A DNA stretch of 64,000 nucleotides from Patescibacteria group bacterium (GCA_038063535.1 JBBTUV010000004.1:20530-84529); one strand, 5' to 3'. Shown: positions 49,435-53,649, numbered from the stretch's first letter. Program-made: numbers and translations. Notes: generated from the sequence alone by a model not told the origin.

Positions 49435-49517
49435 GGAGCCATTCTAGCACAAACGTATCGGGGCGAAAGTTCCATTCTTGGAAAATATGTTATTAAAATG
49501 TTAATATAATAAAGACG

Positions 49518-50465
49518 ATGAAAAAAGTGTTTTTATCGGGGATTCAGCCCTCCGGCAAGCCGCATATCGGCAATTATTTCGGAATGATAAAGCAACTTCT
49601 TGAGGCACAGGGAGAGTATGATGTCTATGCCTTAGTCGTTGACTACCACGCGCTCAAGTCGATACAGAGCCTCGAGGAGATGAAACAAAACATCATTGAT
49701 GTCACGCTCGACTACCTGGCGCTTGGCCTCGACCCAAAAAGAGCGATATTTTTCAAGCAGAGCGACGTGTCCGAGCATACCGAGCTGGCCTGGATTTTCG
49801 ATACCATTACCACCATGCCGTACCTCATGCGGGCGCATGCTTTCAAAGACGCGGAAGCCAAAAATAAAGAAATAGATGTTGGCACCTTCAATTATCCTAT
49901 GCTTATGGCCGCGGATATCCTGCTCTATGCTCCCGACGTAGTGCCGGTCGGCGCTGATCAAAAACAGCATATCGAGATCGCCCGCGACACTGCTCTTAAG
50001 TTCAACAGAATCTATGGAGAGACTTTTAAAATTCCGGAGGCAATGATCCTCGAGAATGTGGCAGTAGTGCCTGGCACGGACGGGCGTAAGATGTCGAAGA
50101 GCTACGGCAACACGATTCCGCTATTTGCCGAGTATGAAGAGATAAAAAAATGCGTGATGAGCATCGTTACCGACTCAGGAGAGGGAATCCCGAAGAATGT
50201 TTTTGAGATTCATAAATTGTTCCGTACAGAAAGTGAATTAAAAAAGATTTATGAGAGCAAAGCAGGGAAGTATCAAGAACTAAAAGAGGCGCTCATAGAA
50301 GACATCGAAAAATTTGTCGCACCAATGCGGGAGAAGAGAAAAAAACTTGAGAAAGACATACCTGTAGCGTTAGCAGTACTAAAGGAAGGAGGCAAAAAGG
50401 CCAAAACCGTCGCTTCGGCCAAAATGGATGAAGTTCGCAAAAAAATCGGGGTGCACGTTTACTAA
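49518..50465 (+). CDS. trpS: Tryptophan--tRNA ligase
   Basis: It has a class-I HIGH-type region (GKPHIGNYFG) and KMSKS. Confidence 0.95.
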   Translation: MKKVFLSGIQPSGKPHIGNYFGMIKQLLEAQGEYDVYALVVDYHALKSIQSLEEMKQNIIDVTLDYLALGLDPKRAIFFKQSDVSEHTELAWIFDTITTMPYLMRAHAFKDAEAKNKEIDVGTFNYPMLMAADILLYAPDVVPVGADQKQHIEIARDTALKFNRIYGETFKIPEAMILENVAVVPGTDGRKMSKSYGNTIPLFAEYEEIKKCVMSIVTDSGEGIPKNVFEIHKLFRTESELKKIYESKAGKYQELKEALIEDIEKFVAPMREKRKKLEKDIPVALAVLKEGGKKAKTVASAKMDEVRKKIGVHVY

Positions 50466-50466
50466 T

Positions 50467-50757
50467 ATGAAAAGTAATTCGAAAGAATATAAAAAGGAAA
50501 TCGTGGAGGTCCTTTCCAGGGTAGGGGATAAGAGGGCCTTAATGCGGGATTTCATTGAGGACCTTTTAACTCCGCATGAATTTGAGAACATTGGTTTTCG
50601 CTGGCAAATAGTGAAGCGTTTAGCGAAAGGAGAAACTCATCAATCTATCGCAGAAGATCTGCGCCTTGGCGTAAGCACGGTGACTCGGGGTTCTCGAGAG
50701 ATGCGTAACAAGGAAGGGGGCTTTCATAAAGTTCTCCGGCTTCTCAAGCTGGAATAG
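50467..50757 (+). CDS. TrpR/YerC-YecD family transcriptional regulator (Trp-repressor-like)
   Basis: LLTPHEFENIGFRWQIVKRLAKGETHQSIAEDLRLGVSTVTRGS aligns to the TrpR-family HTH (LTPDE...SQREI...LG.S.ATITRGS). The ATG sits 1 nt after the trpS stop. Confidence 0.75.
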   Translation: MKSNSKEYKKEIVEVLSRVGDKRALMRDFIEDLLTPHEFENIGFRWQIVKRLAKGETHQSIAEDLRLGVSTVTRGSREMRNKEGGFHKVLRLLKLE

Positions 50758-50815
50758 GTAGAAAAAGAAAGGGCAAGGGAACAGCGAGGTTATCCACACC
50801 TTGCTTTTTCTGCCC

Positions 50816-50855
50816 TTGACTTCTCCCACTATTCCATACTAGTATACTAGTATGG
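50816..50855 (+). promoter_or_regulatory. TTGACT -35-like hexamer plus a perfect 22-bp palindrome CCATACTAGTATACTAGTATGG, proposed as a TrpR-type operator
   Basis: The palindrome at 50834-50855 is perfect. Its two CTAG cores lie 8 bp centre-to-centre, as in the E. coli trp operator GTACTAGTTAACTAGTAC. It lies between the trpR-like gene and the 478-aa gene, overlapping a promoter-like region. Confidence 0.6.
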
Positions 50856-51045
50856 CAAGGATAGAAAGAAACGGAACGGAAATAAGTTCTAAAGGGAAGT
50901 GGTGGAGCGCAAACACACTTGTTTTTGCGTCTATCTTTTGATTTCTCTTTATTTTCTAAACTAAAAAAGGAATCCAAAAATCGGCGCATGAGCGTCGATT
51001 TTGTTCTTTAACAGTATACATAAACCTAAACAAAAAGGAGAAGAC

Positions 51046-52482
51046 ATGAAAATAGTTTCAGTTGGTGGACGCATTAAGTCAGCAAGTGTGGGACTTGATG
51101 TGTTCGTGCCGGGGAATGATAATTTCCAGACGCAGATGAAGCAGGCGCGAGACAACCCTCCGATGCCAATCTTGAGCGCATTCTTTCCTTCAGACAAAAA
51201 CCGTATGAAGCAAATGATGCAGGGTATCGGCTTCTATCGCCCGATGCTCAAGACAGATCAAGGAATGGGCGGAAACTTTCTCCCGTTCTACGTAGACCCA
51301 GTTCTAAGGACAACAGACCTCTCGCCCCGGCAGATCGTCCGAGAAGAGGGTTTGATCATCCCTGAACTCTACCTGGAGCATGACCCAGGGACACTTCAAG
51401 AACTTCGGGAAACGTTCCAAAGATTAGATCTATGGAACGCTGACCGGATTCTCACTCCACTACTCACGCAGTCCCGCGAAGCGGAGAAAGGAAGAACACC
51501 GTTCTTCTTTATCCGCCCAGCCTTGCTTTCGTCACCAATTGTGTTTGGTGATGACATCGTGAAGAAGGTCAACGAAGTTGTAGGACAGTTGCTGAAAACA
51601 GTTGAAGACCATGCGACCGGAAAGGCGGGCTTCAACCAAACAGGCAACTATCTCTACTTTCTCGCGGACGTATTCGTGACGACTGAAGGCGAGGTGGTAG
51701 TCGAGAAACTCCACTTCCCCGATGTCGGATTCTTCATGAGTGAGTTGGAGCTCAAGGACTCGATCGCTTTCGAAACTCAAGGTGTAGTACGCCAGATTCT
51801 AGATCAAGTTTTCGGACGGGTTCTAGGTATGGTCAACTCTCGGGTGGTCTACATAATCACTCGAGATGAAGTACTACAACGAAACGAGGATGTTTTGGAA
51901 ATCTTCGAGATACGAAGCATCTCTCGTAAGTTCTGTGAGGCGGGCATTCAGGTAGAAGTACGAAGTGTCAGCCAGGCGGGAGAAATTCCTTCTGGAGCAA
52001 CCTGTCTGCTTCTCAACATAGCCGAACACGGCTCTGTACTCCTAGAGCGCTACGGACGCGGAGAACTCGTCTGCTATCCGAGCCCGTATCTCCAGTTGGC
52101 ATCACGTGAGTTGACGGGGCTGAGAGAAAGCGTCGTTCCCCGCCAGTTCATGAGCAAGTTCATCAGTCTCATCGACTGTAGTCCGAAAGAACATGAGGAT
52201 GCCGAGACCGTAGTGTCAAAAATCAACGTTATACTTTCAAAAGATGGAGTTGTCTCGGAGCTACTTCATGTTGAAGTTGACGGCGAAACTGTTCCTGTCC
52301 ACCGAAGGATTCACCACTCGTGGAAGCAGTTGGTGAAAAGAGTTCACAGACATAGGGGTGATAAACCTCTTGAAGATGTAGCTCTCAAAATCCGCGAGCT
52401 TCCACTCACGCATCGGAACAGTATGGTAACAAGTACCACTGGTCCAAGGCTCCATGTGTTCAGGTTTACGTTTACTGCTTAG
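51046..52482 (+). CDS. Uncharacterised 478-aa soluble protein downstream of the TrpR-type operator
   Basis: The RBS is AAAAGGAGAAGAC-ATG and composition is protein-like. No family is recognisable by eye; an ATP-grasp-like enzyme was considered but is unsupported. Confidence 0.7.
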   Translation: MKIVSVGGRIKSASVGLDVFVPGNDNFQTQMKQARDNPPMPILSAFFPSDKNRMKQMMQGIGFYRPMLKTDQGMGGNFLPFYVDPVLRTTDLSPRQIVREEGLIIPELYLEHDPGTLQELRETFQRLDLWNADRILTPLLTQSREAEKGRTPFFFIRPALLSSPIVFGDDIVKKVNEVVGQLLKTVEDHATGKAGFNQTGNYLYFLADVFVTTEGEVVVEKLHFPDVGFFMSELELKDSIAFETQGVVRQILDQVFGRVLGMVNSRVVYIITRDEVLQRNEDVLEIFEIRSISRKFCEAGIQVEVRSVSQAGEIPSGATCLLLNIAEHGSVLLERYGRGELVCYPSPYLQLASRELTGLRESVVPRQFMSKFISLIDCSPKEHEDAETVVSKINVILSKDGVVSELLHVEVDGETVPVHRRIHHSWKQLVKRVHRHRGDKPLEDVALKIRELPLTHRNSMVTSTTGPRLHVFRFTFTA

Positions 52483-52525
52483 TCTCCGATTAAATTATGG
52501 AGACAGAAAAGGAGGTATCAAGGAC

Positions 52526-52566
52526 GGGGGCTCGTTCATTGCAACAGCCCCCAACCTTTTTATGTT
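52526..52566 (+). terminator. Intrinsic terminator after the 478-aa gene
   Basis: GGGGGCT-13 nt-AGCCCCC is followed by AACCTTTTATGTT. Confidence 0.5.
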
Positions 52567-52599: not shown

Positions 52600-53010
52600 A
52601 TGAAAAATCTTGCGGAAATAAAAAAAGAAAACATGTGGCGCGCAGTAATGTCTCAAATTTACAAAGCAAAAAAGGAAATTTTAGCCACTATGGATATAGC
52701 TGAAGAGCTAAAAAATCCTTTACCTAAAAAATATTTTTCTTTATTATATAAAAAACACAAAGAAGGTATTAAAATTAAACGAGTAATTTTTGGTTCCACA
52801 AAACAATATAAACATTTATTAAAAGAAGCTGTAGATAAGAATTTGTTTTTTATAGGCAAACATACAAAATCAACAAATTATAAAAGGATGATTCTTATTG
52901 ACCGAAGCAAACTTTTTTTCTCCAGGGGGCATGGAGGTAAAAAAAAGTTTTATTTCACAACTGATGAGATCTATCTGAAGGAATATCTGGATTATTTTAA
53001 TGAGATATAG
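52600..53010 (+). CDS. Hypothetical Lys-rich protein in a strongly AT-rich segment
   Basis: 136 aa. Local GC is about 30 percent against about 55 percent in the flanks. No family recognised. Confidence 0.5.
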   Translation: MKNLAEIKKENMWRAVMSQIYKAKKEILATMDIAEELKNPLPKKYFSLLYKKHKEGIKIKRVIFGSTKQYKHLLKEAVDKNLFFIGKHTKSTNYKRMILIDRSKLFFSRGHGGKKKFYFTTDEIYLKEYLDYFNEI

Positions 53011-53577
53011 AGTTTTCCGCAGGTGCTTGTCAAAAAATGAAATAACTGATACAGTTAAAGAGTGAGTAAAAGTACACAGCCGAAGAATGTTATCCTTGCC
53101 AGCCTTTAATCTAGAAGGCTGATCTTTGCGCTGTAAAAATCTCTCAACACTTACAACCCAAACACCAGCCTTCTAAACCTAGAGGCTGGTGTTCTCGTTT
53201 ACGAGAATAGTTGTTCTTCCCAAGCTCCGAAAGAGAGACAATAATGCCCAAGTCGTCCAGTTTGGAAGAGTGGTTCGTAGGGGCAATCAGATCGGGGAGA
53301 GACTTTCTGACTGTGCCTCCCCACATCACGGAACTTCCGTGCGGGCATCGACGAGCCCGCACTGATAGACCCTTCGAATTACGAAGGATACTGTTCCAGC
53401 TGGTTTGGGCCCACCACAACAGAGAACACCAGGGTCAGGGTTGTTTCTTGCCTCTGTCTTCAATTCTTCGGGAGAGCAATCTCCCGGAGAGAACAGACCA
53501 GCAGGAACGACCCCGTTACATGGCCGACGTTGGACGACCACGCTGAGTTCCGCCAGTGCAAGCAGTATGCGGAACAC

Positions 53578-53620
53578 GGGGGGCTGTCGCGCGCGACAGC
53601 CCCCCTATTATTTTTTATTC
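53578..53620 (+). terminator. Strong intrinsic terminator at the end of the ORF-poor 53.0-53.6 kb stretch
   Basis: The palindrome GGGGGGCTGTCGCG/CGCGACAGCCCCCC forms a 12-14-bp GC stem and is followed by TATTATTTTTTATT. It is plus-strand specific and lies 30 nt before the aspS promoter. Confidence 0.75.
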
Positions 53621-53649
53621 CGCTTTTTTTATGCTAAAATACTTTTACC

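Follow-up and report, generated by a model that had tools for sequence, protein, structure and literature searches.

Our results support a model whereby two genes in a 64,000-nucleotide (nt) stretch of DNA from a Patescibacteria group bacterium (GCA_038063535.1 JBBTUV010000004.1:20530-84529; this whole stretch is the window, and positions are counted from its first letter) form an operon for tryptophan (Trp) starvation. The genes, X478 and Y136, encode proteins of 478 and 136 residues; the pair would be governed by dual control resembling that of the Escherichia coli trp operon and would act on tRNA-Trp or on Trp. We put the probability of this model at roughly 70%. In the model, the locus comprises two transcription units, the first consisting of trpS and a TrpR-family gene and the second of X478 and Y136, which would be induced by Trp starvation. 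Trp-loaded TrpR on an ACTAGT-AT-ACTAGT palindrome would shut off initiation of the second unit. When Trp-tRNA-Trp is plentiful, a ribosome on a short leader peptide would reach the stop codon within segment 2 of the leader RNA, leading to the terminator at 50977-51002, while a ribosome stalled at UGG-UGG would mask segment 1, leading to a 2:3 antiterminator and to entry of RNA polymerase into X478. In other lineages the X-Y pair would be under a tRNA-Trp T-box and, in some, would share a transcript with trpS and a tRNA-Trp gene. Using ATP, X478-Y136 would act on tRNA-Trp or Trp and so sustain Trp-tRNA-Trp when Trp is scarce. That the pair is switched on by Trp limitation is well supported by the comparison of sequences; Trp-dependent binding of TrpR, the attenuation mechanism and the function of the pair are steps that we infer.

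Control elements ahead of X478 and its homologues

The first unit opens with trpS (49518-50465, + strand), which encodes a tryptophan-tRNA ligase of 315 residues with HIGH and KMSKS motifs that scores 208 bits against Pfam PF00579 (tRNA-synt_1b) and 278 bits against TIGR00233 (trpS; cut-off 176.75). The TrpR-family gene that the initial annotation had placed 1 nt past trpS is confirmed at 50467-50757 (+ strand). Its 96-residue product matches PF01371 at 55.4 bits (gathering threshold 27) across profile positions 5-86 of 88 and scores below the cut-off of the YerC/YecD model TIGR02531 (23.1 vs 42.2). Its alignment to E. coli TrpR spans residues 37-90 and keeps T44, R54 and Q68 (E. coli numbering) as well as the recognition helix E (I79-S86), which reads VSTVTRGS in the window and IATITRGS in E. 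coli, with R84, G85 and S86 retained. We take R54 and R84 to be the arginines that sandwich the corepressor in E. coli TrpR. With these two arginines and the recognition helix in place, the helix-turn-helix residues do not contradict an E. coli-like specificity. Judged by its sequence, the 96-residue protein belongs to the TrpR family, has a reading head like that of E. coli TrpR and is presumably a functional ortholog of the latter.

A perfect 22-base pair (bp) palindrome, CCATACTAGTATACTAGTATGG, lies at 50834-50855, beginning 76 nt past the trpR stop codon and carrying two CTAG cores 8 bp apart, exactly as originally described; it contains ACTAGTATACTAGT at 50838-50851. The TTGACT at 50816, noted earlier as promoter-like, is paired by the promoter scan across 18 nt with TAGTAT at 50840-50845, giving a sigma-70-like promoter (50816-50845, + strand, 9/12 matches) whose -10 element falls inside the palindrome. 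Because the palindrome covers the -10 element and the predicted start site, binding of TrpR would block initiation, and we regard the palindrome as a putative TrpR operator of the E. coli type. The chance expectation for perfect 22-bp palindromes in 64 kilobases (kb) is about 0.015, and the window has 3.4-fold fewer CTAG sites than expected (74 vs 249). With three mismatches allowed, the palindrome is unique in the 64 kb and was matched in 0/100 shuffles. A scan for ACTAGT-N2-ACTAGT, made on the 64-kb window, returned this single site; there were no more operator sites in the window, where the 8-mer TACTAGTA with one mismatch was not above chance.

To place these elements in a wider context, 58 related loci were assembled from genome and metagenome collections and contig look-ups, and all tallies below refer to the 41 that are non-redundant. 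Orthologous loci conserve such a site together with the repressor gene: an operator-like site, defined as CTAG-N4-CTAG or (G/A)TACTAGTA(C/T), precedes the X478 homologue in 14/41 loci, and a TrpR gene adjoins in 13 of these 14. Altogether, a TrpR gene adjoins the X478 homologue in 16 of the 41 loci, some of them at only 27-34% X478 identity. In TrpR-bearing relatives the operator takes the forms (A/G)TACTAG(T/C)ATACTAGTAT or TGTACTAGTACA. The register of a -35 element, 17 nt, TAG(T/C)AT, ACTAGT and ATG is repeated in L043, L051 and L052, and L015 has the operator and leader ATG as in the window. Even at 27-29% protein identity the operator stands ahead of a trpR-X-Y operon, the distant loci L041, L045 and L054 having the gene order operator, trpR, X, Y.

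Downstream of the promoter, a leader peptide open reading frame (ORF) of 29 codons, MARIERNGTEISSKGKWWSANTLVFASIF, occupies 50852-50941 (+ strand) and has tandem Trp codons, UGG-UGG, at 50900-50905. Its ATG takes up the three bases that precede the final base of the palindrome, 7 nt 3' of the -10 element; the transcript therefore probably starts at or next to the AUG, and initiation at the leader-peptide AUG is probably leaderless. The leader RNA is predicted by RNAfold to form mutually incompatible hairpins. In hairpin 1:2 (50890-50951, + strand), the 5' arm carries the Trp codons, and the leader stop codon (50939-50941) falls within the 3' arm. The antiterminator 2:3 (50926-50988, + strand), which is incompatible with both 1:2 and the terminator, is predicted at -14.3 kcal/mol with segment 1 masked and segment 4 absent, and it captures the 5' arm of the terminator. 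The terminator 3:4, AAAATCGGCGC-ATGA-GCGTCGATTTT with a U-rich tail (50977-51010, + strand), was found by the terminator scan and by RNAfold, its hairpin at 50977-51002 having a predicted energy of -14.9 kcal/mol. This leader of about 190 nt is consistent with a trpL-type attenuator operating by ribosome stalling.

When nine related leaders are aligned, the antiterminator 2:3 is 88.1% paired compared with 44-56% in slid controls, a value reached by 0/500 shuffles, and four pairs (10 cells) show changes on both sides. The core helix of 1:2 is 90.6% paired in the nine leaders, three pairs being altered on both sides. Leader ORFs with WW or WWW precede the X homologue in L004, L014, L015, L016, L017, L024, L047, L050, L052 and L054. 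Peptides that are otherwise unrelated share the W codons only (WW in L014, L050 and L054; WWW in L024), as in FIWWNSQ, NWWWALE, IVWWNAD and LSWWKIL.

Two further observations concern the leaders. The motif GTTCTT(T/C) lies at 51003-51009, overlapping the tail region of terminator 3:4, and occurs in 15/41 loci, 28-71 nt 5' of the X478 start (background, 0.058 per 150 nt); it is present after the terminator in attenuator-type and T-box-type leaders alike and, being complementary to the Shine-Dalgarno sequence AAAGGA, could be an anti-Shine-Dalgarno element. In the most distant clade (L041, L045, L050), a small ORF ends 7-22 nt ahead of the X start; its C-terminal (E)G(L/F)VW is conserved, and its one conserved Trp codon could couple translation of X to the supply of Trp.

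Loci without TrpR often have a T-box leader instead. Rfam RF00230 matches were obtained in nine loci (L006, L023, L026, L029, L030, L032, L036, L039 and L046), and no operator-like sites were found in T-box loci. The T-box bulge GGUGGCACCGCG (UGGC) is present in 9/9 of them, and these T-boxes also have a terminator. The specifier bulge reads UUGGG and the equivalent terminal loop of L039 reads AGAAUGGG, so that the sole common reading is UGG followed by a purine, namely G. A UUG (Leu) specifier was considered and ruled out: the C of UGGC pairs with, and so predicts, a discriminator G73, which is present in the tRNA-Trp gene of L056, whereas the window tRNA-Leu genes have A73. A T-box-like reading of the window sequence GGTGGAGCGCAA was dropped in favor of the attenuator; RF00230 has no match at an expectation value (E) <=10 in the window leader (50740-51080).

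The synthetase and tRNA genes travel with the pair as well. trpS adjoins in 8/41 loci and lies directly 3' of Y in L012, L050, L056 and L057; it also follows Y in L058, which is outside the tally and whose upstream sequence is missing. In L056 and L057, 2 nt separate the end of a tRNA-Trp(CCA) gene from the X start codon. Both loci (L056, 5650-9325; L057, 4308-7749) are distant ones of Gottesmanbacteria type and have the order tRNA-Trp(CCA), X, Y, trpS. Their trpS is fused to a C-terminal tRNA-binding domain and is split or frameshifted in L057, and L056 also has a T-box-like leader upstream. Counting TrpR with operator, WW leader, UGG T-box, adjacent trpS and a tRNA-Trp gene directly upstream as Trp-linked features, 33/41 loci have at least one. 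The recurrence of the operator, the T-boxes and the tandem-Trp leaders in relatives supports the proposal of the initial annotation that X478 belongs to a Trp-responsive unit controlled by TrpR and its operator. The attenuator, the Y136 gene, the LanB/PEARL-like fold of X478 and the link to tRNA-Trp genes had escaped that annotation.

The X478 and Y136 proteins

The window comes from a metagenome-assembled patescibacterial genome, and X478 (51046-52482, + strand) is identical to the NCBI entry 'MAG: hypothetical protein AAB500_02350 [Patescibacteria group bacterium]'. Its earlier description as a protein of no recognisable family holds at the level of sequence, with no match in Pfam and NCBIfam at E<=0.1, PF04738 (Lant_dehydr_N) included; its ATG is at 51046 and not at 51047. 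An exhaustive profile search over 1.84 billion cluster representatives yielded only 93 clusters and nothing beyond full-length, family-sized proteins and fragments, which makes the X478 family small and sharply bounded. The X478 profile had no LanB match among Protein Data Bank sequences, and hhalign of X478 against E. coli YgiC, for which all homologues gathered were at least 77% identical, gave a probability of 0.2 and no signal.

The AlphaFold model of X478 (predicted local distance difference test score (pLDDT) 94.4, predicted template-modeling score 0.93) has a fold that is not that of a housekeeping family. Its best structural matches are tRNA-dependent LanB domains, with 374-388 residues covered, followed by acid-amine ligases of the ATP-grasp superfamily: YgiC (score 11.8), glutathionylspermidine synthetase (10.8) and eukaryotic glutathione synthetases (about 9-10). 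Foldseek gave E 9e-6 for human glutathione synthetase and 1e-5 for NisB. The model is similar in fold both to the LanB glutamylation domain and PEARLs and to the ATP-grasp superfamily of the glutathione synthetase and GspS-like kind. Arginine-rich invariant residues stand at both termini (G8, R9 and K11; R468, H470 and R473), and D208, D226, R273, D282, E285 and N324, together with K11, are invariant residues that would be candidates for binding ATP and Mg. X478 contains 0.42% Trp, compared with a window average of 0.88%. On the strength of the structure model, we consider X478 a probable ATP-grasp-derived enzyme of a small uncharacterised family, nearest to the LanB/PEARL glutamylation domain. 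In agreement with such an origin, two reports state that PEARLs and LanBs derive from ATP-grasp enzymes, that half-size relatives exist, and that in PEARLs the CCA end of the tRNA occupies the former ATP-grasp site (PMC11117183, PMC11962472). We found no paper on the X478-Y136 family or on TrpR in Patescibacteria.

A Y136 homologue almost always follows X478, often overlapping it or separated by 4-30 nt, and X478-Y136 is a conserved two-gene cassette. In the window, Y136 (52600-53010, + strand) encodes a basic protein of 136 residues whose structure model, built from a shallow alignment, has a pLDDT of 91.8 and the phospholipase D (PLD) fold, with matches to FAM83B (13.8), TrmBL2 (12.8), NucT (12.7) and PLD (12.4). 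Across 33 Y136 sequences the invariant columns are T30, Y45, R61, F64 and D101. The catalytic motif HxK(x)4D is not present as a conserved feature of the 33, and the His of the window's HTK is unconserved. The family is strongly basic (median isoelectric point 9.9), and 28/33 homologues are free of Trp. Y136 is predicted to be a catalytically inactive PLD-fold partner that lacks the histidine of the HKD motif. A role as a C-terminal acceptor of the LysW or scaffold kind was rejected, the C-terminus being unconserved.

Between the two genes lies a hairpin, GGGGGCT, loop CGTTCATTGCAAC, AGCCCCC, followed by AACC and TTTTT (52526-52561, + strand), with its stem at 52526-52552, a loop of 13 nt and a T-run that starts 4 nt past the stem. 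The initial annotation had taken it for the terminator of the 478-residue gene. The hairpin is there, but the terminator scan did not call it and the unit continues to Y136. Its stem covaries and its loop, CGTTCAT(T/C)GCAAC, is kept in L004, L005, L015, L017 and L019; in other clades just 4-30 nt separate X and Y. It might act as a terminator, regulated or partial, or else bind a protein.

Two side observations concern related loci. Along a single contig of L004, identity to the window shifts abruptly, being 62% in TrpR, 94% in X478 and 77% in Y136, and the block of high identity begins in the leader, which suggests that the leader-X478 module has recombined or been exchanged between lineages. 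In L007 (1-688) and L027, an 'uncultured Bdellovibrionales' contig has the X-Y pair beside a 16S rRNA gene that carries an insertion of 205 nt. Insertions in 16S rRNA are typical of bacteria of the candidate phyla radiation (CPR), and the Bdellovibrionales bin label may be wrong.

Several features of the surrounding DNA are recorded here. A terminator-like hairpin called by the terminator scan follows trpR (50783-50810, + strand), and its loop contains an exact DnaA-box 9-mer, TTATCCACA (50790-50798), about 20 nt 5' of the -35 element and the single exact copy in the 64 kb; GTTATCCACA is kept at the equivalent place, with differing flanks, in L005, L015, L019, L043 and L052, and near matches to it occupy that place in L004 and L047. 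Between the divergent starts of dnaB and trpS, a conserved CATTCTAGCA with a single CTAG inside (49455-49470) has counterparts upstream of trpS in L005, L043 and L052, with the variants CATTCTATCA and CATTCTAACA in two loci; it might be a weak TrpR half-site or a piece of the dnaB leader. A TrpR operator 5' of trpS was considered and not accepted, there being just one conserved ATTCTAGCA, distant from the -10 element. Downstream of Y136, the ORF-free gap up to aspS (53011-53649) holds a candidate large structured non-coding RNA (53056-53612, + strand) with a promoter-like site at 53027-53055, a strong terminator at 53578-53605 that is a 28-bp perfect palindrome and a folding z-score of -8.8 over 557 nt; Rfam gave nothing for it at E<=0.1, neither a tRNA nor a tmRNA was called, and it resembles L019 over 151 nt only (73%).

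Function of the pair

The LanB/PEARL-like fold of X478, closest to that of enzymes binding an aminoacyl-tRNA at its acceptor end, its basic partner and the co-encoded trpS and tRNA-Trp genes together favor a reaction that depends on ATP and has as its substrate tRNA-Trp or Trp destined for it, and induction on Trp shortage implies that this reaction should raise and not drain the supply of Trp-tRNA-Trp. In a more specific version, X478-Y136 would be a tRNA-Trp-directed enzyme of primary metabolism that, under Trp starvation, makes, salvages or re-routes acylated tRNA-Trp without a canonical synthetase, X478 being a ligase of the ATP-grasp/LanB type and Y136 a PLD-fold, tRNA-binding partner; possible variants are acyl-phosphate-mediated charging of tRNA-Trp and a transfer to it of Trp or of a substitute amino acid. 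We put this version forward tentatively, as one that is unlikely to be correct in its particulars.

The main alternative, in our estimate likewise unlikely, is that the pair works on small molecules and free of tRNA, for example as an ATP-grasp acid-amine ligase that salvages or ligates Trp, a precursor or a conjugate, and is regulated like a trp operon since it supplies free Trp to an auxotroph. Control by TrpR, attenuators and T-boxes is typical of supply genes, and the trpR-X-Y operons of L041, L045 and L054 recall trpR-trpBA of chlamydiae, which is a salvage operon. Ligases, however, use up amino acids instead of releasing them, and we know of no plausible ligation that forms Trp. The widest structural matches of X478 are the tRNA-dependent LanB domains and not the acid-amine ligases, X is directly preceded by a tRNA-Trp gene in L056 and L057, and the strongly basic Y136 suits a nucleic-acid ligand, all of which speak against this reading.

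It is improbable that X478 is a true PEARL-like enzyme that spends Trp-tRNA-Trp on a peptide, as in the pathways of peptides that are ribosomally synthesized and modified after translation (RiPPs) or of scaffold peptides, with the WW ORF as the precursor peptide. The fold would suit this role, the tRNA-Trp and trpS genes of the operon could provide the substrate, and the small ORF ahead of X478 in close relatives has a conserved C-terminal half, SWWSANT.VFASIF. Known PEARLs do include enzymes that add Trp from Trp-tRNA-Trp onto a peptide encoded alongside (PMC11117183, PMC11962472). In divergent loci, however, the Trp codons are all that the small ORFs have in common, T-box loci have no such ORF, and the codons are placed exactly where stalling flips 1:2 to 2:3, as expected of a leader peptide. 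No RiPP-type neighbours (elimination, cyclase, oxidase or export genes) were seen near the related loci, the hosts are minimal-genome Patescibacteria, and a pathway that consumes Trp needs the opposite of induction by Trp shortage. Least probable is that the palindrome is a product of chance, a restriction site (it contains two SpeI sites) or a simple hairpin, with trpS and trpR as coincidental neighbours: that it is the sole site in the 64 kb, from which no regulon can be defined, would fit, but its rarity and the depletion of CTAG, its recurrence at a fixed spacing from the -35 and -10 elements across many divergent loci, its occurrence almost only beside TrpR genes (13/14) and in none of the T-box loci and the retained recognition helix of TrpR all argue otherwise.

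Several points weigh against the model of a Trp-starvation operon acting on tRNA-Trp or Trp. At the sequence level, no similarity of X478 to LanB or ATP-grasp families could be detected, and it is not obviously logical to induce an enzyme resembling a consumer of aminoacyl-tRNA during Trp starvation. The window TrpR scores 43.2 bits on the NCBIfam equivalog TIGR01321, under its cut-off of 67.25, and the residues corresponding to R69, K72 and S88 of E. coli are not kept in it. With segment 4 present, the equilibrium favors the terminator over the antiterminator (-19.4 vs -14.3 kcal/mol), and masking segment 1 in thermodynamic folding leaves the terminator preferred; antitermination must therefore be kinetic, as in classical attenuators, and the antiterminator is argued from folding during transcription and from conservation. 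The covariation set comprises just nine related sequences, and the structure scored on it was derived from one of its members. The nine T-box matches (32-69 bits, E 4e-13 to 2e-3) are all below the gathering threshold of 93 bits because their Stem I is truncated. Finally, 8/41 loci have no Trp-linked feature, among them the Legionellales locus L009, in which X stands alone beside a methyltransferase and is uninformative.

Set beside these points, three independent Trp sensors, namely TrpR with its operator, the Trp-codon attenuator and the tRNA-Trp T-box, appear to have been recruited repeatedly to one gene pair. Together with the trpS and tRNA-Trp genes that travel with the pair, they form a functional pointer about as strong as comparative genomics gives. 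Patescibacteria (CPR bacteria) have, to our knowledge, minimal genomes and are generally thought to be without amino-acid biosynthesis, and LanB/PEARL enzymes are so far known to us solely from natural-product pathways. X478 would link ATP-grasp ligases, the tRNA-dependent LanB/PEARL lineage and core translation genes. If the tRNA-Trp-directed version were true, that lineage would have a housekeeping relative whose work is on tRNA, and Patescibacteria would respond to Trp limitation in a way not known before. Solving the reaction of X478 could reveal how Trp scarcity is coped with, a primary-metabolic role for the lineage and a compact catalyst that handles tRNA or Trp.

Comparison with known systems

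PLD-fold domains that are inactive, such as the FAM83 DUF1669 domain and the C-terminal domain of TrmB/TrmBL2, are the nearest counterparts of Y136, whose family differs from them in being stand-alone, 105-152 residues long, basic and encoded after X478. YgiC/glutathionylspermidine synthetase and the eukaryotic-type glutathione synthetases resemble X478 in fold without sequence similarity, and the extra regions of X478 are common to LanB and not to these ATP-grasp acid-amine ligases.

PEARLs (BhaB-C-Trp, AmmB2) and the LanB domain (MibB, MadB, NisB, TbtB) resemble X478 in their ATP-grasp ancestry (PMC11117183) and in the link to tRNA-Trp. The terminal R9, R468 and R473 of X478 recall, by their position in the sequence, Arg34 and Glu813/Arg815 of PEARL active sites, an N-terminal Arg and a C-terminal Glu-x-Arg. 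In contrast to these enzymes, X478 is about half their size and has no sequence-level similarity to them; an elimination domain is missing, as are a precursor peptide and tailoring genes, and it lies in core-gene neighbourhoods of minimal genomes, where it would be induced by Trp shortage.

Control by T-boxes has a parallel in Bacillus subtilis, whose anti-TRAP operon also has a leader peptide with consecutive Trp codons. This operon (rtpA-ycbK) is reported to respond via a T-box to uncharged tRNA-Trp (PMC10327191), and relatives of the window locus likewise use T-boxes with a UGG specifier. Unlike the anti-TRAP operon, the window itself has no T-box, the T-boxes of its relatives have the truncated Stem I and sub-threshold Rfam scores, and the products of the two operons are unrelated.

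The closest parallel is the E. coli trp operon. Both systems have an operator of the form ACTAGT-N2-ACTAGT whose CTAG cores lie 8 bp apart and which overlaps the promoter, a TrpR-family repressor with a conserved recognition helix, a short leader ORF in which two Trp codons stand side by side, and mutually exclusive 1:2, 2:3 and 3:4 hairpins of which the last is an intrinsic terminator. They differ in that, in the window, the leader AUG is at the predicted transcription start and is probably leaderless, the repressor gene stands immediately upstream, after trpS, and the repressor is without the R69/K72 equivalents; above all, an uncharacterised enzyme pair is controlled here and not trpEDCBA. 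The presence in Patescibacteria of full dual control in the style of E. coli is notable, documenting the textbook design of repressor plus attenuator far outside Proteobacteria. Thus the repressor, the operator, the attenuator and the T-box are all of known kinds, while the enzyme pair that they regulate is a new family.

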